This document shows positions 5,550 through 19,230 of a stretch of DNA of 64,000 bases, piece by piece. The notes under the pieces were generated by a model. It ran no database searches and had not been told where the DNA came from. It saw only the letters and a program-made list of their open reading frames with translations. This DNA comes from a bacterium (lineage in GTDB: Bacteria > UBA8248): assembly GCA_965204535.1 (NCBI GenBank), contig CBDBEV010000001.1, forward strand, positions 2,816,001 through 2,880,000, written 5' to 3'. Made by a program: the position numbers and the translations under genes. Every line of letters begins with the position of its first letter. Positions within the stretch are counted from its first letter, which is position 1.

Positions 5550-6477
5550 GGGTTTCCTGCTCCTCTATAGGGATGAAGATACAACCTGTCGATACGCCTC
5601 GAAAGGACGGCTCATCATCGCGTTTTTCGCGGGAAGCCGCAAGGCCGCGTCACCCGCTCTTGAGGGCGGGCCGCGCCCCGCAGGGGTCAAAGCCGATTGA
5701 TGAATGAGGCTTTGCCGACCGGGGATGCGAGAGCGCCGGGAACGAAGCCGGGCCTCCCGTCAATCCCTTGCGCAAATGCGGGCTGTTGCGGGCAAATGCG
5801 CGGGTTCCCAAAACTTTTTTTTTGCCGCCGTATCTGAGTGCGCGGCGCTAAGATTTGTGTGATAACCCTTTTGATTACAATCATTTATCTGGACGTTATT
5901 TTTCAGCAATTTATCGAAAAACCCCGTGAATTTATCGAATTTTACGGGAAATATCATTATTTTCATTTCCATGTCGTTCCCGTATCCATTCTCGTGACCC
6001 CTCCCCCCGCGATAATCGAACCGGAGTGGGGGGAGCAGGTTTACGCCTTCGTAGGGACAGCTCGCGAGCTGCCCGCGTTCTTCCGAAGACGGGAGGGCCG
6101 TTCCGGCGAAGTATGGGTTATCGCGCGCGATCGAAGACTTTTCGGAAGGGTTCGCCGTCTCCACCCTCGCCCCGGCGCCTGATTCCATGAGAACGCCTCC
6201 CTCTCCGTGCGGTGATCAATCCCGATTGGTGAATCAGGGATTGCTGTTTCTCCGCTTCGCGCGCACGATACCGCAGTCCGTGGTTTCAGGAATTACGGCA
6301 AATGCGGGGAAATGCGGGGCGGAGCCGGCCCCGCGCCGCGCCTCTCGCCCTGAAAGGACAGCCCCTCCTCGGGGCTGTCCAACCCCCCCTACCCCCCCTT
6401 GACGGGGCTGTTGAAAAACCCCTGGTTTTGTGATCGTATGGATGTATTCCCCCTCGCCCGAGATGGGAGTTCCGGAG

Positions 6478-7248
6478 ATGTTGGACCGCAAGAGGCGCGA
6501 GCAGATGGACTTGTTCGTGGCCGGCCCGCTGGAGAAGTTGATTCCCGAAGATCACATATTGCGCCAGGTGGACCGCGTACTGGATTTGAGTTGGCTTCGC
6601 GAGGAAGTGGCGGCGTGCTATTGCGCGGACAACGGTCGACCGGGGATCGACCCGGAAGTGGTGATCCGGTTGATGCTGGCGGGCCTGCTGCTGGGCTACG
6701 CGGAGGACCGCCGCCTGCTGCGCGAGGCGCAGGCGCATCTGGCGGTCCGGTGGTTCATCGGGTACAGGCTGGACGAGGATTTGCCGGATCATTCGAGCCT
6801 GACGCGTATCCGCCAGCGGTGGGGGGAGGCGCGGTTCAAGGAGATATTGCGCCGCACGGTTCAGGCGTGCCTGGACGCGAAGGTGGCGAAGGGAGAAGTG
6901 GTTCACATGGACGCGTCTTTGATACGTGCGGACGTGAGCTGGGAGAGTCTGGCGGAGCGCCACGCGGAGAAGGTGGTGCGGGAGAACGACTCGGCGGATG
7001 AGACGGGGAAGAAGGGCGGTGGCGGGGGTTCGGGTCCGGTGAGCCGAACGGACCCGGACGCTCGCCTGGCGCGCAAGAGCGCTCGGGCGGGGTTCGAGCC
7101 GAGCTACAAGCACCACGCGGTGGTGGACGACGAGCGTGGGGTGGTTCTCGACGTAGAGGTGACGGAGGGGACGTTGAACGAGCGGGAGATGATGGAGCCG
7201 CAGTTGGATGCGGTTTGCGAGCTCACGGGTCGCGCGCCCGCGGTGGTG
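6478..7248 (+). pseudogene. IS1182 transposase N-terminal part (split)
   Basis: GRPGIDPE, LPDHSSLTRIR and HMDAS motifs; matches 42071 transposase up to ...GRAPAVV, then breaks at the inner IS. Confidence 0.88.
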
Positions 7249-9030
7249 GAGACTGTGAAAGTATTCCCACGATTCTGGTGGGTGACGCTGGCGAGCGATG
7301 CCCGGGTTGTCTGTACATGCTATCTTTACCGGTGAGTGAGATAACCACATAAAGGGTCACCACCATGTCCGAGAGACGTTATCAGGAGGTGCAGTCCCGA
7401 AGCCAGATGATGCTGCTTCCGCCGTGTCTGGACGACTACGTGTCCGAGCACAATGCGGTGCGCGCGATCGATGCGTTCGTCGGCACGCTGGACCTGGAGG
7501 CGCTGGGGTTCGCGCATGCCGAAGCGAACTGCGGCGCCGGTCAGCCGGCTTTCGACCCGGCGCTGCTGCTGAAGCTGTATCTGTACGGCTACCAGCACCG
7601 GGTACGGAGTTCGCGCCGTCTCGAAGCGGAGACGCGGCGCAATCTGGAAGTGATCTGGCTGTGCCAGGGTGCGACGCCGAGCTACAAGACGATTGCGGAT
7701 TTTCGCAAGAACAATGTGGCTGCGCTGCAGGAGGCCAACCGGGAGTTCGTGCTGCTGTGCCGCGAACTCTCGCTGCTGGGCGGCAGCCGGGTGGCGGTCG
7801 ACGGGACTTTTTTGAAGGCCGATGCGAACCTGGACAGCTTCCAAACCAAGCGGTCCCTGGCAAGGGACCTGAGGCGTTTGGAGAAGAGGATTGCGGCGTA
7901 TCACCGGCAGTTGGACGAGGCGGATGCGCGCGGGGAGGAGTGTGGGGACGGTTCGGAGGATCCGGACCTGCCGGTGAAGCTCAAGGCCTTGATCGAGAGG
8001 CAACAAAAGAAGAAGGCACTGCAAGAGCATTTGCAGGAAAGCGGAGAGCGTCAGGTATCGGGGGTCGATGCAGATGCTCGACTTCTGAGGAACGGCGATA
8101 TAATGGTGGGCGGATACAACTGCCAGATCGCGGTGGACGACAAGCACAAGCTGATTGTCGCGGAGGATGTGGTGCAGGACGGCAATGACTCCGCTCAGTT
8201 GGAGCCGATGATGACGAAAGCCGGCGAAGCCATGGGCAGCGAACGCCTGGTCGGCCTGGCGGATTCGGGCTACTTCAACGGCGCACAGTTGAAGAGTTGC
8301 GAAGACAAGGGAATGGAGGTGTATGTTCCGATACCGAACCAGACGGCCCGCAAGGGCAAGGACGGACGATTCGGCAGCGATGAATTCCGTTACGATGCGC
8401 AGGATGACACGTATGTCTGTCCGGCCGGAGAGCGTCTGGTTCGAGGCGGCACGACCACCGTCAGGGGCAGGCTGTATTACTTTTATCGCGGGACGGCGGC
8501 GGTTTGCCGGGACTGTTCGTTGTCGGGCCGATGCCTGACAAAGTCGAGATCGACGCGCAGGATACAACGCTGGGAGCATGAGGACGTGGTGGACCGGCAT
8601 CGCAAGAAGATGAACGCCCGTGTGCCATTGATGCGCGGGCGAAGCACACTCGTCGAACATCCATTCGGTACGATCAAGCGCTGGGCGGGGATGGATCATT
8701 TTGTGATGCGCGGACTCGGCAAATGCCGCGGCGAATTCAGCCTGATGACGCTGGGTTACAACTTCAAGCGGGTCATGCGTGTGCTGGGCGGAGCTGCATT
8801 TGTGGAGCATTGTCTGCAAAAACAGCGGTTGGGGACGAATGGCGTGTGAACTTGAAGCCGATTCTTCGAGGACTTGACCGCGACCCCGAGCTGACCGGCC
8901 GCCGAGACGTTTCTCTCCCGGCTCTGCGGTGTTGTTGCTCCCGAAGTTGAAGACAGTGTCCGGCCATCGGGCTGCAAGCGTAAGCGAGCCCTGTTCCGGA
9001 GACTGTGAAATCCAATACTCTCACAGTCTC
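7249..9030 (+). mobile_element. Second IS1182-family element nested in copy A
   Basis: 17-bp TIRs GAGACTGTGAAAGTATT / AATACTCTCACAGTCTC (1 mismatch); 10-bp TSD CGCGGTGGTG at 7239-7248 and 9031-9040. Confidence 0.93.
7365..8849 (+). CDS. IS1182-family DDE transposase (intact)
   Basis: LLKLYLYGY..SSRRLE, AVDGT, LADSGY, CPAG/C..C..C zinc motif, VEHPFGTIK. Confidence 0.93.
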   Translation: MSERRYQEVQSRSQMMLLPPCLDDYVSEHNAVRAIDAFVGTLDLEALGFAHAEANCGAGQPAFDPALLLKLYLYGYQHRVRSSRRLEAETRRNLEVIWLCQGATPSYKTIADFRKNNVAALQEANREFVLLCRELSLLGGSRVAVDGTFLKADANLDSFQTKRSLARDLRRLEKRIAAYHRQLDEADARGEECGDGSEDPDLPVKLKALIERQQKKKALQEHLQESGERQVSGVDADARLLRNGDIMVGGYNCQIAVDDKHKLIVAEDVVQDGNDSAQLEPMMTKAGEAMGSERLVGLADSGYFNGAQLKSCEDKGMEVYVPIPNQTARKGKDGRFGSDEFRYDAQDDTYVCPAGERLVRGGTTTVRGRLYYFYRGTAAVCRDCSLSGRCLTKSRSTRRIQRWEHEDVVDRHRKKMNARVPLMRGRSTLVEHPFGTIKRWAGMDHFVMRGLGKCRGEFSLMTLGYNFKRVMRVLGGAAFVEHCLQKQRLGTNGV

Positions 9031-9040
9031 CGCGGTGGTG

Positions 9041-9667
9041 ACGGCGGATTCGGGCTATGCGTATTCGAAGGTGTATGCGGGATTGGAGCGGCGGGGGGTG
9101 GACGCGGTGATACCGGCGAAGAAGGAGCCTTCCCAGAGCCGTGTTCCGCTGCAGTTGTTCCGCTACGACGAGCGGCACAAGGTGGTGAAGTGTCCGGGGG
9201 GCCAGACGCTGCGCCCCCGGAAGGAGACGGAGCGGGGGCGCTACTATGGTTCGAGGACGCGCGATTGCGCGGGGTGCGCGCTGAGGTCGGATTGTCTGCC
9301 CAAGTCGCACACGAGCAGGACGGTTCTGATTCCGCATGAATATCCGGCGCTGTTGCGCGCGCGCCGCCGGCACGCGCGCCGGGGGGAGGAGGAGGGCCGG
9401 CTGTGGCGCCGCCACATGGGGCGCTCGGAGGGCTACCACGGCGAGGCGAAGAGTCGGCACGGACTGGGGCGGGCGGTACGCCGGGGTCTTGCGAACGTGA
9501 AGATCCAGGCCTACCTGACGGCGACTGCGGTGAACCTCAAGCGGCTCGCCGCCGCTGTTGCGGCGGGTTTATTCGCCCACTGGAGGGTCTGCGCCGCCCG
9601 GAAACGCCGAATGCGCGCATATCGCGGCCTCACGCGCCGATTGGGCTTCCTCTCCGCCGCCGCGTGA
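9041..9667 (+). pseudogene. IS1182 transposase C-terminal part (split)
   Basis: Resumes TADSGYAY...NLKRLAA exactly where the N-terminal part broke off. Confidence 0.88.
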
Positions 9668-10281: not shown

Positions 10282-10548
10282 CTACCTGGTTCGCTCGATG
10301 AGTTCGCGCAAAGAGGCCATCGCCTCCTCGTGCCTGTGTTTGGAATCTTCCTCCCTGCGGCGAGACTCGGCCATGGCCTCGTCGTGCTTGGCCATCGCCT
10401 CACGGTGCTTGCGCTCCGAATCGTCGGCGCGCATGGCGGCGTTCCTGTCCATCGTGCGGATGCCGTGGTAGATGAGGCCGAGGCCGGCGTAGGCGGCTGC
10501 GAGGTTCAGGTAGGCGGCGATGAGGTTGAGGTATTCGGACGACGTCAT
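10282..10548 (-). CDS. Small membrane-anchored H-x-x-x-M repeat protein (paralog 1)
   Basis: N-terminal hydrophobic helix ending GLIYHGIRTM, HREAMAK/HDEAMA/HEEAMA repeats, C-terminal LRELIERT. Confidence 0.7.
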   Translation of the reverse strand: MTSSEYLNLIAAYLNLAAAYAGLGLIYHGIRTMDRNAAMRADDSERKHREAMAKHDEAMAESRRREEDSKHRHEEAMASLRELIERTR

Positions 10549-11209: not shown

Positions 11210-12271
11210 TCATTCGCCGTAGCGAAGCCTCGCCATCGCGCCCTGTTTCGCGAGCTGGCCCTGCGCGTAGCGCCCCGGCATGGTCGGCGACTGCCAGCGC
11301 CCGGCGATTTGCATCTCGACCAGCGACGCCCCCGCCGTGGCCAGGCTCTGCGCGCTGCCCACGCGCAGGCTGTGCCCGCTGATGCGCCCCTCCACGCCCG
11401 CGTCCCGGGCGCGCTGGATGATGATGCGCCGGATGCTCCTCTCCGTCAGGCGGCCTTCCCGCAGCCGGCCCCCCTTGAACAGCGGCCGGAACAGCGGCCC
11501 CTTCGTCAGGCCTGCCTCCAGAAGCCAGGACCGGACGCGCGCCACCGTCGGCTCGCCCAGAAACTGCACGACGCCCTCGCCCTCCTGGTCCGTCTTCGAG
11601 CGGCGGATCAGCACCGTCTGCTCGTCGAGGTCCACGTCCTCGATGTCGAGCGCCTCGACCTCCGACACCCGGAGCAGGGCGTCGCTCGCCACCGCCACGA
11701 TCGCCGCGTCGCGCAGGCCCCCCAGGGTCCCCGTCCCCTCGGCCAGCGCCGCCGCGCGGTCCGCCTGCTCCCAGCGCACCCCCACCACCTGGCCGCGGCC
11801 GCGCTCTGCGGCCAGGCGCCTGAAGCCGGCCAGCACCCGCTCCGAGGCCGCCCCCGCCGGAGAGGGCCGGCCGTTCAGCTTCGCCCGGAAGCGAAGCGCC
11901 GCGACCGCCATCGCGGCCACGGCCGCCGAGTGCCCCTGTTCGTAGAGATCCCCCAGGTACGCCGCTATCCCGGCGTCGGTCTCGGGGTTTCCCGAGCGCT
12001 CGAACCTCCGCAGGGCCGTCTCGTACACTCGCCGCGTGTTCTTAGACATCGACGCCTTCGCCAGGTCGGCGGCCGCACGGGCCGGTCGGGCCGGCCTTCT
12101 CGTCAAAGCGATGTCCTGTTCTGGGTCGGGCGGTGTTGCCCCAGTCGTCATGGCGAGAAGCCAACCTTCTAGGTCAGCGGCCGTTTCCATTCCCTGAGGC
12201 CGTCCGAGCGCCTCGTTACGCTCAAGGGCCTCGTCAAATACCGAGTATAGACGACGGCGGGAAATTTCCAA
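11210..12271 (-). CDS. Cre-like tyrosine site-specific recombinase (true start may be a downstream ATG, about 12191 or 12152)
   Basis: Catalytic set R (LLRVSE), K (RSKTDQ), HxxR (SGHSLRVG), W (GRW), Y (GRY); C-terminal GAMARL resembles Cre GAMVRL. Confidence 0.9.
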   Translation of the reverse strand: MEISRRRLYSVFDEALERNEALGRPQGMETAADLEGWLLAMTTGATPPDPEQDIALTRRPARPARAAADLAKASMSKNTRRVYETALRRFERSGNPETDAGIAAYLGDLYEQGHSAAVAAMAVAALRFRAKLNGRPSPAGAASERVLAGFRRLAAERGRGQVVGVRWEQADRAAALAEGTGTLGGLRDAAIVAVASDALLRVSEVEALDIEDVDLDEQTVLIRRSKTDQEGEGVVQFLGEPTVARVRSWLLEAGLTKGPLFRPLFKGGRLREGRLTERSIRRIIIQRARDAGVEGRISGHSLRVGSAQSLATAGASLVEMQIAGRWQSPTMPGRYAQGQLAKQGAMARLRYGE

Positions 12272-12320
12272 GTAAAAAAACCGTTTTGGGGGGCAGAAAC
12301 CCGGACGAAACGGCGGGTTT

Positions 12321-12354
12321 CTGAAGTCCGATAATTACTATTATCAGAAAATAT
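12321..12354 (+). promoter_or_regulatory. Putative lox-like recombination site A (13-8-13 bp)
   Basis: CTGAAGTCCGATA-ATTACTAT-TATCAGAAAATAT; inner arms TCCGATA/TATCAGA quasi-palindromic. Confidence 0.7.
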
Positions 12355-12377
12355 AACACCTCTCACGGCCATGTCAA
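12350..12377 (-). promoter_or_regulatory. Sigma70-type promoter inside the putative invertible segment, currently facing the recombinase
   Basis: Minus strand TTGACA-16 bp-TATATT with extended -10 TGn. Confidence 0.72.
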
Positions 12378-12499
12378 GCGCAATTCCGGGGTCCCCGGAG
12401 GGGTTTCGGGCGCTGTTTTGCGCCTTTTTTCGCTTATATTTCGCTTATTTTCGTCTCAAATGCGCCCCGAATCCGGTTTTTCGGCGGAAAACGGGGGTT

Positions 12500-12533
12500 C
12501 TGGGGGCCGTTAATAGTAATTAGCGGTCACCAG
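12500..12533 (-). promoter_or_regulatory. Putative lox-like recombination site B (13-8-13 bp), inverted relative to site A
   Basis: CTGGGGGCCGTTA-ATAGTAAT-TAGCGGTCACCAG; arms 10/13 palindromic; spacer is the exact reverse complement of the site A spacer. Confidence 0.75.
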
Positions 12534-12757
12534 GCCGGGAACGGTGGGACATACCGCAGGGATTCACCTCTCGCGGAACGACTCACCACCGGCCCGGACC
12601 ATGAAAGGGTTCAAGTCCGCCGCGTTTCAGGCGGCCGAAAATACGAATCACCAGTTTGTGAAGGCCCGAAATGAAAGCTCACGAAAGGAGGTTAATCGGA
12701 GAAAGCCGGAAATTCACGGAAAATCCCTTTTTCTATGTATTCAGGAGGACTCACTAA

Positions 12758-14791
12758 ATGACGTTCAGAGAGAAACCGATAAACAAGCTTTACGCTTTCG
12801 CGCTGGCGGCGCTCTTCGCGCTGACGCTGGCGGGCTGCGGCGGTGGCGGCGGCGGGACGACTGCCACGCCGGACTCGGAGCCGCCACCGATGCCGACGGC
12901 TTACGAGCAGGCGGTTGCGGCAATCGCGGCAGCCGAAACGGCGGAAGCGGCACAGGCGGCCTACGATGCGGTGGACCAGGCTGCTATTACTGGCGCAGAG
13001 TCGCAGAAGCTGCAGGCAGCGCTTGACGACAAACTGGATATGCTGGCGACAGCGATGCGCGCGGCAGACCAGAAAAAAGCGCTGAGTACGGCAGCCGGGG
13101 AGATAGATACCTCCGACCTGTCCACTCAGGAAGCGGTTGACGCCGCACGGACCGCCATCGCAGGGCTTCGGCAGGCGCTGGCCGACGCGGAAGACGTGAG
13201 CGATGAAGACAAGGCGATGTACATGTCGCAACTCGACGACGCCGTGGCTGCCGTGGACGAGGCGCAGGGCGGGATCGACACCGACGAGCGCCGGACGAAC
13301 CAGACGGCGGCATTGACGAGCGCTTCCGGGACCCTCCAGGCGGCCCTCGCGGCGCTTTCCGGCTCGACGCCAACGCAGGCGCAGCTCGACGCCGCCACCG
13401 CCGCTCTCGCCGCTCTGAACATGGCGATTGCGGATGGCGCAGACTTGACCGACGCGGAAAAGGCTGCGTATGTGCGAGAGGCGGCCAATGCGGCGGCGCC
13501 GATCCAAACGGCGCAAGCCGCCTTCGATAAGGCCAAGGACGCTGCCGACGACCAGATGAAGAAGGACATGGCCGCCAGCGGCAAAGCGTTGCACAAGGCG
13601 TTGACGACCGATCCGCTGGATTTCCTGGACGACGATGTCGCAGTATCCCTTGCGGCTAGCGGACTTATGGTGAACCCGAATGGAACTGCCGACGATACCG
13701 ATGGGCTAGCCTCCGTCCCCTTGAAGGCCAGCGGTTCGGCCGGATCGTTGGACGGCTGGAGCGGGATGAACTATGCCCATATGGATTCGGGCACGAAGGT
13801 CGCCAACTCTGCCGTGGTTTACACGAATCAAGGTGCGCCGACGACGGAGACCTTCGCTAGTGAATACGGGACCGGTGGTGATTCAGTGACCGAGGGTACC
13901 TACACCCCGGACAACCGTCGTCTGGCGATTGACGTATCGGCGACCGCCAATAGCAAAAAAATGAAGAGTTCGAGGTTCCCGACGGTTGGAAGCCAAAATT
14001 TCCCACCTGCGCAGTCGGGAGGCAGCGAAGTGTCGTTCTCGGGCACATATGACGGAGCGTCCGGCACATACCTGTGCACTACGGCCAATGCTGCCAATGG
14101 TTGCGCTGCCACGTATACCCCTACCGGAGGAATAACGCTCACCGGGACCTGGATATTCACCCACGCGGTCGGTGCGATGGTGTCGAGGGCAGACGGCGAC
14201 TACCTGTATTTCGGTTGGTGGTTGCGCAAGGACAAGGACGACATGCCGACGCATGCCAGCGCGTTCTCCGGTGTGGCGGGAACGGTAGCGGCCCCGACCG
14301 TCAGTTACACTACCCTTGCAGGCTCCGCGACCTATGTCGGCAAGGCGGTCGGAAAGTTCGCTCTGAGCAACCCGCTCGACGGCACGGGCAACGCCGGCCA
14401 CTTCACGGCGGACGCTACCCTGACCGCCAAGTTTGGGGCGAACGAGGCGCCCACCAACGGTGGTGTTACCGGAGTGATCGAAAACTTCATGGCCAACGGT
14501 GCCTCCGTGCCGTGGAGCGTGAAGTTGAATCGCGCTGCATGGGGTGACACCGGCTCGTTCGCCCCCGCGGATGATGCTACCACCACAACTGTTGACGAGT
14601 CGGTGACCGCCGGCACAGTTTGGTCAATCGACGGCAACGCGGCGCCGGCGTCCGGCATCTGGAGCGGTCAGATGTATGACGAGAAAGCCAGGGACGGAAG
14701 TGACGTTCCGACCACGGCCATCGGCACGTTCCAGTCCGAGTTCAGCAGCATCGGCCGCATGGTCGGCGCCTTCGGCGCGAACAAGCAGTAG
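12758..14791 (+). CDS. Large surface lipoprotein; Ala-rich helical N-half, TbpB/HpuA-like (Slam-substrate-like) beta-barrel C-terminus
   Basis: GGAGG RBS; lipobox LAGC followed by Gly run; YLYFGWW, SATYVGKAVGK, FTADATLTAKF, terminal VGAFGANKQ. Confidence 0.8.
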   Translation: MTFREKPINKLYAFALAALFALTLAGCGGGGGGTTATPDSEPPPMPTAYEQAVAAIAAAETAEAAQAAYDAVDQAAITGAESQKLQAALDDKLDMLATAMRAADQKKALSTAAGEIDTSDLSTQEAVDAARTAIAGLRQALADAEDVSDEDKAMYMSQLDDAVAAVDEAQGGIDTDERRTNQTAALTSASGTLQAALAALSGSTPTQAQLDAATAALAALNMAIADGADLTDAEKAAYVREAANAAAPIQTAQAAFDKAKDAADDQMKKDMAASGKALHKALTTDPLDFLDDDVAVSLAASGLMVNPNGTADDTDGLASVPLKASGSAGSLDGWSGMNYAHMDSGTKVANSAVVYTNQGAPTTETFASEYGTGGDSVTEGTYTPDNRRLAIDVSATANSKKMKSSRFPTVGSQNFPPAQSGGSEVSFSGTYDGASGTYLCTTANAANGCAATYTPTGGITLTGTWIFTHAVGAMVSRADGDYLYFGWWLRKDKDDMPTHASAFSGVAGTVAAPTVSYTTLAGSATYVGKAVGKFALSNPLDGTGNAGHFTADATLTAKFGANEAPTNGGVTGVIENFMANGASVPWSVKLNRAAWGDTGSFAPADDATTTTVDESVTAGTVWSIDGNAAPASGIWSGQMYDEKARDGSDVPTTAIGTFQSEFSSIGRMVGAFGANKQ

Positions 14792-16040: not shown

Positions 16041-16604
16041 CTACTCGGGGTGAGGGGTATCGGGCGGCGCGGCGGTGCGGCGGATGAGTTCCTTGAGCGC
16101 CTCCATGTTCTCATGGTGCTGTTCGCTTTGCTCCCCGCGCAGCGCCTTGAGCGCCTCCATGTTCTCGCGGTGCTGATCTTTGTGCTCCTCGCGCTGGGCG
16201 GCGAACGCTTCCATGGTCGCGATGTGCTGAGCTTTTTGATCCTCGCGCTCGGCTGCGAGCGCGTTCATGGTCGCGCGGTGTTGATCTTTGTGCTCTTCGC
16301 GCTGTGCGGCGAGCGCGCTCATGGCTTCGCGGTGCCGGGTGTCGAGCGCCTCCATGTTTTCGCGGTGCGTGCGCTCCATCGCCTCCATGGTTTCGCGGTG
16401 CTGGGCGTCGCGGTGGCGCGCGGCCTGGCGCATGAAGTAGAGGCCGTAGGCGATCAGGGAGCACTGCGCGGCCCCGACGAGCGCGGCGACCCACACCGAG
16501 GCCTGCTGCGCCGCGAGGGACGCTTTCTGGATGGCCAGGGATGCTTCCTGCAGCGCGAGTGTGGATTCCTGGATGGCGAGGCTTGCGGCTTCGTATTCCG
16601 TCAT
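16041..16604 (-). CDS. Membrane-anchored H-x-x-x-M repeat coiled-coil protein (paralog 2)
   Basis: AQCSLIAYGLYFM helix, seven HxxxM modules, C-terminal LKELIRRT. Confidence 0.75.
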   Translation of the reverse strand: MTEYEAASLAIQESTLALQEASLAIQKASLAAQQASVWVAALVGAAQCSLIAYGLYFMRQAARHRDAQHRETMEAMERTHRENMEALDTRHREAMSALAAQREEHKDQHRATMNALAAEREDQKAQHIATMEAFAAQREEHKDQHRENMEALKALRGEQSEQHHENMEALKELIRRTAAPPDTPHPE

Positions 16605-16721
16605 TCGGTTTTCCCCCACGTTAGTGGGTCCTCATAGGCGTTACTCTAATGCGCCGCCGCGCGTTTTGTCAAGATGAATGCCGGGCGGTGGGGGAGCGAG
16701 ACCGAACGGGGAGAAGAGCGT

Positions 16722-17148: not shown

Positions 17149-18993
17149 TCAAAACACCATCCTTAGGGCGAGCGAGAGGTGGTGGCTGCGGCGCGAGTCT
17201 TCGCCGAAGCGTCCGGAGTAGCTCAGGAGGCCGCTCGCGCGCTCGCCGAGTTTCGCGCTCAGCCCAAAGTCTGCGCTCACGGTGCTGACCGAGGGCGTGA
17301 AGCCCGGAAGCGTGAAGCGTCCGGGCATGGTGTTCGAACCCGCCGAGACGAGGACGGGGTCGTCCTCGAGTTCGCGCTCATAACCGATGCGGGCGTAGGG
17401 GCGGAACCCGCCGACGCTCCAGTCGAAGCCGTAGCCGCCGCGCATGACGAGCGAGTTGCGCGAGAAGTCCGAAAAATTCATCGCGGCCGAAGAATTTCCG
17501 TTCTCCCGGTAGCCCTTGACCTCCTGGTTGAGCAGCGAGAGACCGAAGAACGGGCCGTGCCGGAGAGTCTCCGAAGCGCCCAGCGTACACGTCAGGTCGA
17601 GTTCGCCCCCGAACTGGGCGGCATCGGTGGAGCCGCGCTCGGTGCGCACCGCCGCGCCCAGGGCGATGGAGCGCTCGACGTCCACCGAGGTCTGCCCCAG
17701 GGTCAGGGCGACGCTCACCTGGAGGCCGCCGCTGCGCCACGCGCCGTGCAGCGAGCCGAGCACCGCGTCGCCTTCGAGGTTCGCGCCCGCGAGTTCGTTC
17801 TCATGAAGGGCGATGCTGAGCGCGGCGCCCCAGGAGAGGTCGGGACCTGCGCGGTGGCCCGCGCCCAGGGTGAGCGCCGTCATGTCGGATTCGATATCCC
17901 CGAGGCGCGCGAAGGCGCCCGCGTCGCTCATGCCGAACCCGCCCCGCGCATAGCCGCGCCAGCTCCCGACGGGCAGCGCGAAATCCGCGGCCCGCTCCGC
18001 CGAGATGACGCCGTGGTGCGCCTCCGCCGCCTCGACGCCCGCCTCGCCCGCGAGCGAAACCTGGAGCGGGGCCGCGAGCGCGGCGGTGACGAGGTTCGCG
18101 AGCATCGCGTGGACGGCGCCGCCCGGGTGGCTGCGGTCCGCGAACAGATGCGTTTCGCCTGCGCCCGGCGCGTAGGTGACGGGAAAAGGAGAACCCTCGG
18201 GCCCGCACTGGATGGAGAGGGCGCTGTCTGCGTTCGGCGCCCCGCAGGCCGTCCCCGTGACGCTGGTGAAGCCGTACCTCCCGGGATTCGCGGCGATTTC
18301 GCCCAGCAACGCATGGGCGTTGACGGAGATGACGCCCTCCTCACGCTCGCGAATGCCGGCATGGAGTTTCTCGTTGTATTGGCCGACCAGCGCGGAAAGC
18401 CCCGCCTGAACGGCGGGACCCAGGGTGACGGCGTAGGGCGCCTGGCCGGCGTCGGGCATGTTGAAGACCACGACGCGGCGGGCGCCCGCCGCGCGGAGTC
18501 GCCCAATCTGCGCGGCGTTCACGTCCGCAGCCGCAAGGATGTGGGCCAGCGCGTTGGGGGAGTCGTTTTGCGCGGCGTCCGAGATGTCGTTCGAGCCGCC
18601 GAAGACGGCGTAGAGCGCGTTCGGGTCGAGGCTTCCGCCGCTGGCGGCGAGATGCATGCCAATCTGCTCCGTCACCGTCGGCACGTCGGGCTGATCGCAG
18701 GGCGTGGCCGGGTTCATGCACGCCCCGGCGAAGGCGTAGTTCGGCCCGCCGGCGAGCGAGTTGCGTCCCGATGCGCCGAAGGCCCCCGCGACGAGCTCGG
18801 CCCAGACGGGGTCGGGGTTCGTGGTGAAGCTCGTGCCCGCGGGGAGCCCCTGCGTCTGGCCCACGTTGCCCGAGTCGCTCAGGCTGTCGCCGAACACGAC
18901 GAAGTCGGAGAAACTCTGGGCCGGGGCGCTCCCGGCGAACCCCAGGGTGAGAGCGAAAACGATGACGAGGAGCAGACGAAAACGATGCGGCAT
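17149..18993 (-). CDS. GDSL lipase/esterase autotransporter (EstA-like)
   Basis: Signal peptide, VFGDSLSDSG, NYAFAGA, GGSND, DRSHP; C-terminal beta-barrel ending in F. Confidence 0.9.
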   Translation of the reverse strand: MPHRFRLLLVIVFALTLGFAGSAPAQSFSDFVVFGDSLSDSGNVGQTQGLPAGTSFTTNPDPVWAELVAGAFGASGRNSLAGGPNYAFAGACMNPATPCDQPDVPTVTEQIGMHLAASGGSLDPNALYAVFGGSNDISDAAQNDSPNALAHILAAADVNAAQIGRLRAAGARRVVVFNMPDAGQAPYAVTLGPAVQAGLSALVGQYNEKLHAGIREREEGVISVNAHALLGEIAANPGRYGFTSVTGTACGAPNADSALSIQCGPEGSPFPVTYAPGAGETHLFADRSHPGGAVHAMLANLVTAALAAPLQVSLAGEAGVEAAEAHHGVISAERAADFALPVGSWRGYARGGFGMSDAGAFARLGDIESDMTALTLGAGHRAGPDLSWGAALSIALHENELAGANLEGDAVLGSLHGAWRSGGLQVSVALTLGQTSVDVERSIALGAAVRTERGSTDAAQFGGELDLTCTLGASETLRHGPFFGLSLLNQEVKGYRENGNSSAAMNFSDFSRNSLVMRGGYGFDWSVGGFRPYARIGYERELEDDPVLVSAGSNTMPGRFTLPGFTPSVSTVSADFGLSAKLGERASGLLSYSGRFGEDSRRSHHLSLALRMVF

Positions 18994-19230
18994 GCGAAGG
19001 ACTCCTTTTTCGGGAGAGAATTTACGTCGATAGCGAAAAGACCCGCGCGTCGAATGAGGGCAAGATAGCAAATTCACGGCGCCTGCGGCAATCAAAAACG
19101 CGCCGCTCGCAAACGCTTTGCGCATCGGGAAGGGCTCTCCTGCGGCGTTTCGCGGGATTCGGGCCTGCGGGAGTGAAACCGCCGCGAATCGTGGTATAAT
19201 GCCGTATCCGTTTCGGTTACGTCCTTAAAA

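Follow-up and report, generated by a model that had tools for sequence, protein, structure and literature searches.

Does the short piece of DNA between a recombinase gene and its neighbouring lipoprotein gene work as a genetic switch, and if so, what is switched and by which enzyme? This question is raised by a locus in a stretch of 64,000 nucleotides from a bacterium of the lineage UBA8248 (assembly GCA_965204535.1, contig CBDBEV010000001.1, positions 2,816,001 to 2,880,000; this whole stretch is called the window, and positions without further label refer to it). Between a gene for a Cre-like tyrosine recombinase and a divergent gene for a putative surface lipoprotein lie two inverted 34 base pair (bp) sites, A and B, which enclose a predicted promoter (Table 1). 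The 185-bp segment defined by these sites is probably an invertible promoter, which the Cre-type enzyme would flip and which would thereby switch the surface lipoprotein OFF or ON.

Table 1. Features of the switch locus in window coordinates (aa, amino acids; nt, nucleotides)
Feature	Position	Strand	Description
Cre-like tyrosine recombinase	11210..12190	-	326 aa from ATG 12190; Pfam PF00589, E 1e-16
Predicted fixed recombinase promoter	12244..12271	-	TTGGAA-16-TATACT, 9/12 consensus bases; outside the invertible segment
Terminator-like hairpin followed by U7	12274..12313	-	faces the OFF-oriented promoter; -13.0 kcal/mol
Recombination site A	12321..12354	no strand	spacer 12334-12341; inferred 6-bp crossover core 12335-12340
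Invertible segment	12335..12519	no strand	185 bp, outer core edge to outer core edge; as assembled OFF for the lipoprotein
Predicted invertible sigma-70-type promoter	12350..12377	-	TTGACA-16-TATATT, extended -10 (preceding TG); 11/12 consensus bases
Recombination site B	12500..12533	no strand	spacer 12513-12520; core 12514-12519
Leader	12534..12757	+	conserved, 224 nt; without its own consensus promoter
Lipoprotein	12758..14791	+	677 aa; lipobox LAGC, Cys27; alanine-rich stalk; C-terminal handle-plus-barrel of TbpB/fHbp/HpuA type

Recombination sites and recombinase

A first-pass annotation of the window had described A and B as a Cre/lox-like pair of 13-8-13 architecture around an extended -10 promoter on the minus strand (12377-12350). 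On re-reading, the coordinates and sequences of the sites, the inversion of their spacers and the fit of three of the four arms to CTGnnGnCCGnTA proved exact, and the promoter is present as listed in Table 1. The two 8-bp spacers are exact reverse complements of each other, the pair was also recovered as an inverted repeat, and the sites are located 131 and 310 bp from the recombinase start codon. From the proposed layout the matched 8-bp spacers stand, but the 13-bp arms represent an analogy to Cre, because in the family described below good conservation is limited to the innermost ~7 bp of an arm. A scan for promoters returned three promoter-like sites versus 0.3 expected; the start predicted for the invertible promoter lies near 12343, within the inner arm of site A.

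The Cre-like nature of the recombinase, also claimed before, was borne out by its best PDB matches, which are Cre with the single sequence (E 4e-13) as well as with a profile (E 4e-22), compared to 3e-7 and 3e-12 for Xer-like proteins. The alignment covers recombinase residues 75-322 and begins at Cre residue ~70, i.e. it reaches into the N-terminal domain. Furthermore, the catalytic residues R174, K199, H273, R276, W299 and Y308 are intact and invariant in all nine aligned homologues (L047 and L064 were left out of this alignment). The NCBIfam models for DNA invertases of the FimB/FimE type scored far below their cut-offs (NF007371, 24 vs 222 bits; NF007370, 14 vs 221 bits). The protein probably starts at ATG 12190 and not at TTG 12271 of the 353-aa open reading frame (ORF), because the latter codon belongs to the -35 hexamer of the fixed promoter; paralogues that have suffered in-frame deletions downstream of the ATG still retain this codon.

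A family of switches with matched cores

The genome (G000) contains 17 paralogous copies of the inner segment at 17 chromosomal places. The sites form inverted pairs 158-180 bp apart around the conserved promoter. Eight copies lie beside an intact recombinase gene, two beside fragments and seven without any, so that 9 of the 17 switches have no intact enzyme at hand. For the core pattern C[CT]GNTAA-N6-TTANC[AG]G the genome yielded 33 matches, of which 32 lie at switch ends, versus 0.56 expected from base composition; this expectation is post hoc, because the pattern was derived from these very sites. Within the genus, the inner segment is present in 12 of 23 genomes. Among 63 loci examined, four gave no call (L117, L119, L124, L125) and one with a mis-called distal site (L123) was dropped, which left 58 switches in 12 genomes. 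TTGACAT was found at a constant distance from the site in 59 of the 63 loci, the motif having served as search anchor.

In this genome all 17 spacer pairs match within their switch although 13 distinct spacers occur, while shuffling of the partners gave a mean of 1.5 and a maximum of 11 matches in 100,000 trials. Over the 12 genomes the match holds for 57 of 58 switches. Spacer positions 1 and 8 are invariant across switches, whereas positions 2-7 are variable between switches and yet identical within them at 347 of 348 bases, compared to 215.6 expected. The variable arm positions two to five bases off the spacer, counted over the 58 switches, agree at or below chance (3 vs 12.2, 29 vs 29.0, 26 vs 24.6 and 14 vs 13.8). 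Judged from these sequences, matching that is confined to the central 6 bp is the mark of a tyrosine-recombinase crossover. By analogy, a swap of 6-nt overhangs of the kind put forward for RecV (PMC12282940) would explain the 6-bp edges. A general homogenisation of the inverted repeat was considered as well and rejected, since it would not stop at the edges of a 6-bp core. Moreover, in four orthologous pairs, including this locus and L078 as well as C2:2207k and L079, one core base has changed at both ends together. For this locus, the difference from L078 at both ends requires recombination since the lineages split. The sole switch with a core mismatch, of one base (L082 in genome G002), is a candidate for a locked or slow switch.

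Hence, the following mechanism can be proposed. Four recombinase monomers would bind the four arms, cleave the strands behind the first base of the spacer and swap the resulting overhangs of 6 nt; as this exchange should work only with matching cores, the cores would stay matched as they mutate. In the OFF state the promoter would fire into the terminator, and in the ON state it would read through the leader into the lipoprotein gene. The recombinase would be transcribed from its own fixed promoter, and the eight intact paralogues would also serve in trans the nine switches without intact enzyme. Owing to their differing cores, most switches would be insulated from one another, which could result in combinatorial surface variation.

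Evidence on past inversion and on its present rate

Seven of the 58 switches are reversed, two of them in this genome, with the arms exchanged at the spacer, and 51 are OFF; in this tally five switches of undetermined state were scored as OFF, and L116 was scored as ON from the recombinase side. One case is an orthologous pair with both flanks in common, which is OFF in G000 (C2:2207k) and ON in G002 (L079). The opposite-strand alignment is limited to a segment of 206 bp, and once this segment was inverted in silico the identity over 319 bp rose from 68.7% to 89.0%. In addition, run X4 contains a contig in which 12336 and 12513, both in the spacers, are fused on opposite strands. Its loose end is the flank of a sister switch, and the joint does therefore not come from this copy. 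Both orientations are seen among paralogues, among orthologues and in one run, but not for this copy within one population. The earlier claim of an invertible promoter with the lipoprotein OFF as assembled thus gains support from the reversed paralogues, the orthologous OFF/ON pair and the X4 joint, and it can be regarded as probable.

Several observations weigh against such an active switch or limit what can be read from the numbers. The first-pass annotation had predicted inverted junctions in reads; apart from the sister-switch joint in X4, no strand-switch joint over 11900-13300 was found in any of the four runs X1, X2, X3 and X9, where contigs drop rare variants. The X4 joint is a single contig with 31 letters on its short side, ending in the flank of the sister switch. 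In X1, which is possibly the source sample, the OFF junction contigs have depths of 26.6 and 27.7, close to the 24.7 of the lipoprotein contig, so that this copy seems to be predominantly OFF in that run. When orthologous or paralogous switches lie in opposite orientations in separate genomes, this testifies to past inversion and not to a present rate. The genomes are kin, hence their counts do not represent independent events, and in two columns of the outer arms the agreement likewise exceeds chance (31 vs 19 and 23 vs 15), which probably reflects lineage. Identical spacers are shared by 4 of 136 switch pairs here (132 differ) and by 12 of 120 in G002, which is no rarer than chance (P 0.16 and 0.20). 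Selection for unique spacers was thus not detected, and the insulation looks like drift and not like a selected code. Finally, the promoters and the terminator at the locus are pattern predictions. Among the sequencing runs listed as carrying this DNA, none was an RNA data set.

These points lead to the assumption that the family is real but that this copy, or the present-day system as a whole, flips rarely and is effectively fixed OFF. The 51 OFF switches, the lack of an ON junction of this copy in the runs, the OFF state of the orthologue L078 and the core mismatch of L082 fit such a situation. Nevertheless, we regard it as unlikely, since enzyme, sites and promoter are all intact and the core differs from that of L078 by one base at both ends. 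A preference for OFF is another matter: when the sites were scored against the arm consensus, admittedly a crude score, the weaker of the two sites scored higher with the switch arranged ON in 32 cases, the same in 23 and lower in 3, which would favour flipping from ON to OFF.

Predicted transcription towards the recombinase and through the leader

The OFF-oriented promoter points at the recombinase gene, from which a self-limiting loop had been deduced, i.e. the promoter would be the main source of recombinase transcripts and flipping to ON would cut the enzyme supply. However, ~50 nt beyond site A the minus strand carries a hairpin followed by U7 and, behind it, the fixed promoter (12271-12244) that the first-pass annotation had overlooked. 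The motif of the fixed promoter was found at 26 of the 58 switches, namely those with this recombinase 5' end, and in these it is preceded by a T-run in 26 of 26 cases and by a hairpin at least as stable as -12 kcal/mol in 20 of 26. In this copy the hairpin is weak in so far as a longer RNA favours another fold (z -2.2), and a pattern scan did not flag it; because of the competing fold, some read-through towards the recombinase is possible. The loop would also be conceivable for a 344-aa subtype of the recombinase, which lacks both T-run and fixed promoter and accounts for two of the eight intact copies (C2:567k, C2:1583k). More generally, the eight intact paralogues are 72-100% identical and have one common site core, therefore one locus cannot limit the enzyme pool. 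Furthermore, seven switches lack a recombinase gene and two retain a fragment of it, and the orphan switch L079 is ON in G002. Taken together, self-limitation is quite unlikely.

On the other side of the segment, no plus-strand promoter was detected in the leader at a consensus match of 9/12 or 8/12, so that, as far as predicted promoters go, the lipoprotein gene would depend on the flip. Its ribosome site AGGAGG is located at 12743-12748. The leader carries a further Shine-Dalgarno-like motif, GAAAGGAGG at 12683-12691, with no start codon behind it; a perfect GAAAGGAGG or AGAGGAGG exists in 46 of the 58 leaders and is followed by a start codon in one. Such a start-less motif recalls the STAB-SD of Bacillus cry3A, which stabilises the mRNA. 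A leader peptide was ruled out, since 1-bp indels occur in the leader, and an Rfam search over 12100-12800 returned a single match at chance level (PrrF, 16.5 bits vs 90).

The lipoprotein, downstream genes and cassette exchange

The structure model of the lipoprotein reached a predicted local distance difference test (pLDDT) score of 84, compared to 31 for a single-sequence prediction. With its C-terminal fold, Foldseek retrieved fHbp, HpuA, hemophilin and TbpB at E 7e-5 to 5e-4 and modest template modelling (TM) scores of 0.3-0.45. No sequence match was obtained in Pfam, NCBIfam or PDB; a weak match to TbpB_B_D exists in 5 of 32 lipoprotein homologues, this protein not being among them. An Atlas search gave unnamed clusters and then clusters with TbpB_B_D in 11-94% of their members at 0.89-0.92, which is a lead only. 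The genome encodes one lone Slam homologue (C2:795287-796156), adjoining a lipoprotein paralogue (C2:793641-794372). Lipobox, TbpB-like barrel, with the modest TM values given, and a genomic Slam are features in common with the Slam-dependent lipoproteins TbpB, fHbp, HpuA and hemophilin. In contrast to these, the protein has a long alanine-rich stalk and only 10-18% identity, and it belongs to a multigene family under predicted invertible promoters.

Thirteen of the 17 switches in the genome face this lipoprotein family. The remaining downstream genes code for surface proteins with Calx-beta, cadherin-like, fn3 or collagen domains, among them one Calx-beta/cadherin-like protein. In other loci (L040, L042) the switch precedes a gene resembling PAP2/vanadium haloperoxidases, the product of which is probably exported by the twin-arginine (Tat) pathway, and not an adhesin gene.

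Alternatively, the sites might mainly serve to move or swap surface genes between switches of the same core, the promoter flip being a by-product. Cassettes are indeed present or absent at given positions when G000 is compared with G002, the lipoprotein body at this locus has been replaced relative to the orthologue L078 between flanks that are 94% identical, C2:561247 carries a solo site, and contig C1 is broken within a spacer. But the swap at this locus starts ~340 bp downstream of site B, behind the sequence for the signal peptide, no site was found at the far end of the cassettes, and the sites are closely spaced inverted pairs around a conserved promoter, which makes this explanation improbable.

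The solo site (L121) is accompanied by a shortened leader fragment and lies 6 kb from the ON switch C2:567k; two near-identical genes for 901-aa lipoproteins are found between them. The two ends of contig C1 (C1:1-4 and C1:1593650-1593653) both fall into the spacer of a switch and overlap by 4 bases, which hints at read heterogeneity there. That C1 represents a circle excised at a shared-spacer site is unsupported, because both ends are neighbours in G002, where the whole cassette is absent.

That the palindromes are nothing but repressor operators (Fur-like GATAAT boxes or autoregulatory sites) is very improbable: site A does contain GATAAT..ATTATC and overlaps the promoter of a gene with a TbpB/HpuA-like fold, but the hexamers are 4 bp apart, compared to 1 or 7 bp in a Fur box, the per-switch core matching and the arm-exchanged reversed copies would be left unexplained, and the orthologous OFF/ON flip as well as the X4 joint contradict it.

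In the neighbourhood, several nested transposase genes (6430-9667; PF13751 for 9005-9667) lie upstream of the recombinase and are absent from the orthologous locus L078. Two related ORFs for small, membrane-anchored, coiled-coil-like proteins flank the cassette (10282-10548 and 16041-16619, minus strand), and similar ORFs are found near other switches. The gene at 17149-19125 (minus strand) encodes a GDSL lipase autotransporter and is syntenic in G002.

Occurrence and origin

Relatives of the recombinase were found in records titled Nitrospinota (75-79% identity), Binatia, Dehalococcoidia, Latescibacterota, Poribacteria and others, and of the runs for which a habitat is named, X3, a sponge metagenome, ranks best. 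Paired sites, the absence of which at homologous loci had been named beforehand as evidence against the switch, are present upstream in 14 of 26 loci scanned, including one Dehalococcoidia and three Latescibacterota records. The latter three have three different matched cores before a TonB-dependent receptor gene. The Latescibacterota loci L056, L057, L059 and L073 show paired sites ~290 bp apart, a promoter that faces the receptor gene and a promoter-side site with one good arm; in L073 a transposase-like ORF interrupts the region. A single site, as in ordinary lox elements, was found at L043, L048, L050, L054 and L069, and none at the scanned Poribacteria loci. Presumably, the switch evolved from an element with one such site. 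In a metagenome scan with an 18-base arm motif, the inner segment was found in 0 of 91 loci. Many recombinase copies (C2:567k-574k; L122, L084, L090, L091) are followed by a convergent gene for a 239-aa HTH_17 protein, and the ORFs behind it at C2:567k resemble, by eye, F-type conjugation genes, which suggests that the recombinase is carried on an integrative element.

A wider scenario is more tentative and somewhat less likely than its opposite. Here, a Cre-clade resolvase would have been domesticated in sponge-associated bacteria of several phyla as a bank of 16-17 promoter switches, with drifting 6-bp cores as natural heterospecific lox variants, asymmetric arms that bias towards OFF, and occasional recombination between identical cores that reshuffles cassettes. 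If true, it would provide a combinatorial surface code and a ready-made orthogonal lox library for one new enzyme.

Comparison with known systems

Inversion of promoters for surface structures is well known from FimB/FimE of E. coli and from Mpi of Bacteroides fragilis, which acts on at least 13 scattered regions (PMC5903667). However, the enzyme studied here fails the FimB/FimE models, and Mpi is a serine recombinase. In Mycoplasma penetrans, the mpl family of paralogous surface lipoproteins is likewise controlled by promoter inversions through a tyrosine recombinase (PMC8593674), while host and lipoprotein fold are unrelated to those described above.

With Cre-type systems the locus has in common the R-K-H-R-W-Y set and a 34-bp palindromic target within 1 kb of the gene, the central strand-exchange region being represented by the co-varying 6-bp core between invariant spacer ends. 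Site A also has GATA next to its spacer and a T at position 7 of the arm, the two features that Cre-type sites have in common (Jelicic et al., 2023, PMC10250229). The validated lox9 site of YR9 from the same study, compared by eye only, has the same GTCCGATA-A-N6-T-TATCGGAC core, i.e. identical inner arms and A/T spacer ends; YR9 recombined lox9 weakly (16%). Unlike in Cre/loxP and YR9/lox9, the outer arms are degenerate here. Cre tolerates many matched spacers (PMC11260471) and resolves P1 dimers (PMC8138268), whereas the inverted asymmetric pairs described here, ~179 bp apart around a promoter at 17 chromosomal places, do not correspond to a role in dimer resolution.

Our literature searches, outside the coverage of which most subscription papers fall, returned no paper on this system or on a phase-variation invertase of the Cre clade. 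The text and supplement of DeepInverton (PMC11602134), as far as available, do not name these taxa, and the supplement may omit the full inverton tables. The switch would represent a natural case of promoter inversion by a Cre-clade enzyme. The family suggests that adhesins and TbpB-like lipoproteins undergo combinatorial phase variation on a large scale in a lineage that is uncultured and probably lives in sponges, for which the same searches found no precedent.

Tyrosine-recombinase promoter inversion with per-switch spacers is nevertheless a kind of system that has already been described, which the first-pass annotation missed. For RecV of Clostridioides difficile a 'spacer code' was proposed, in which the two spacers of a switch are the same but those of separate switches differ (PMC12282940). 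Both systems combine one type of tyrosine recombinase with several dispersed switches, ~13-bp arms, a 6-bp spacer and surface phenotypes (PMC12282940; PMC5903667). RecV has no N-terminal DNA-binding domain (PMC12282940), whereas the present enzyme can be aligned with Cre into this domain, and here 17 paralogous copies of one promoter cassette occur together with up to eight enzyme copies and 24 natural cores. Within-switch identity of the spacers applies here as well, but a unique spacer for each switch does not. The 58 switches lend evolutionary support to a rule of spacer matching that had the status of a proposal in the case of RecV, and they place the crossover within 6 bp; the candidate recombinase comes with its naturally paired cores.

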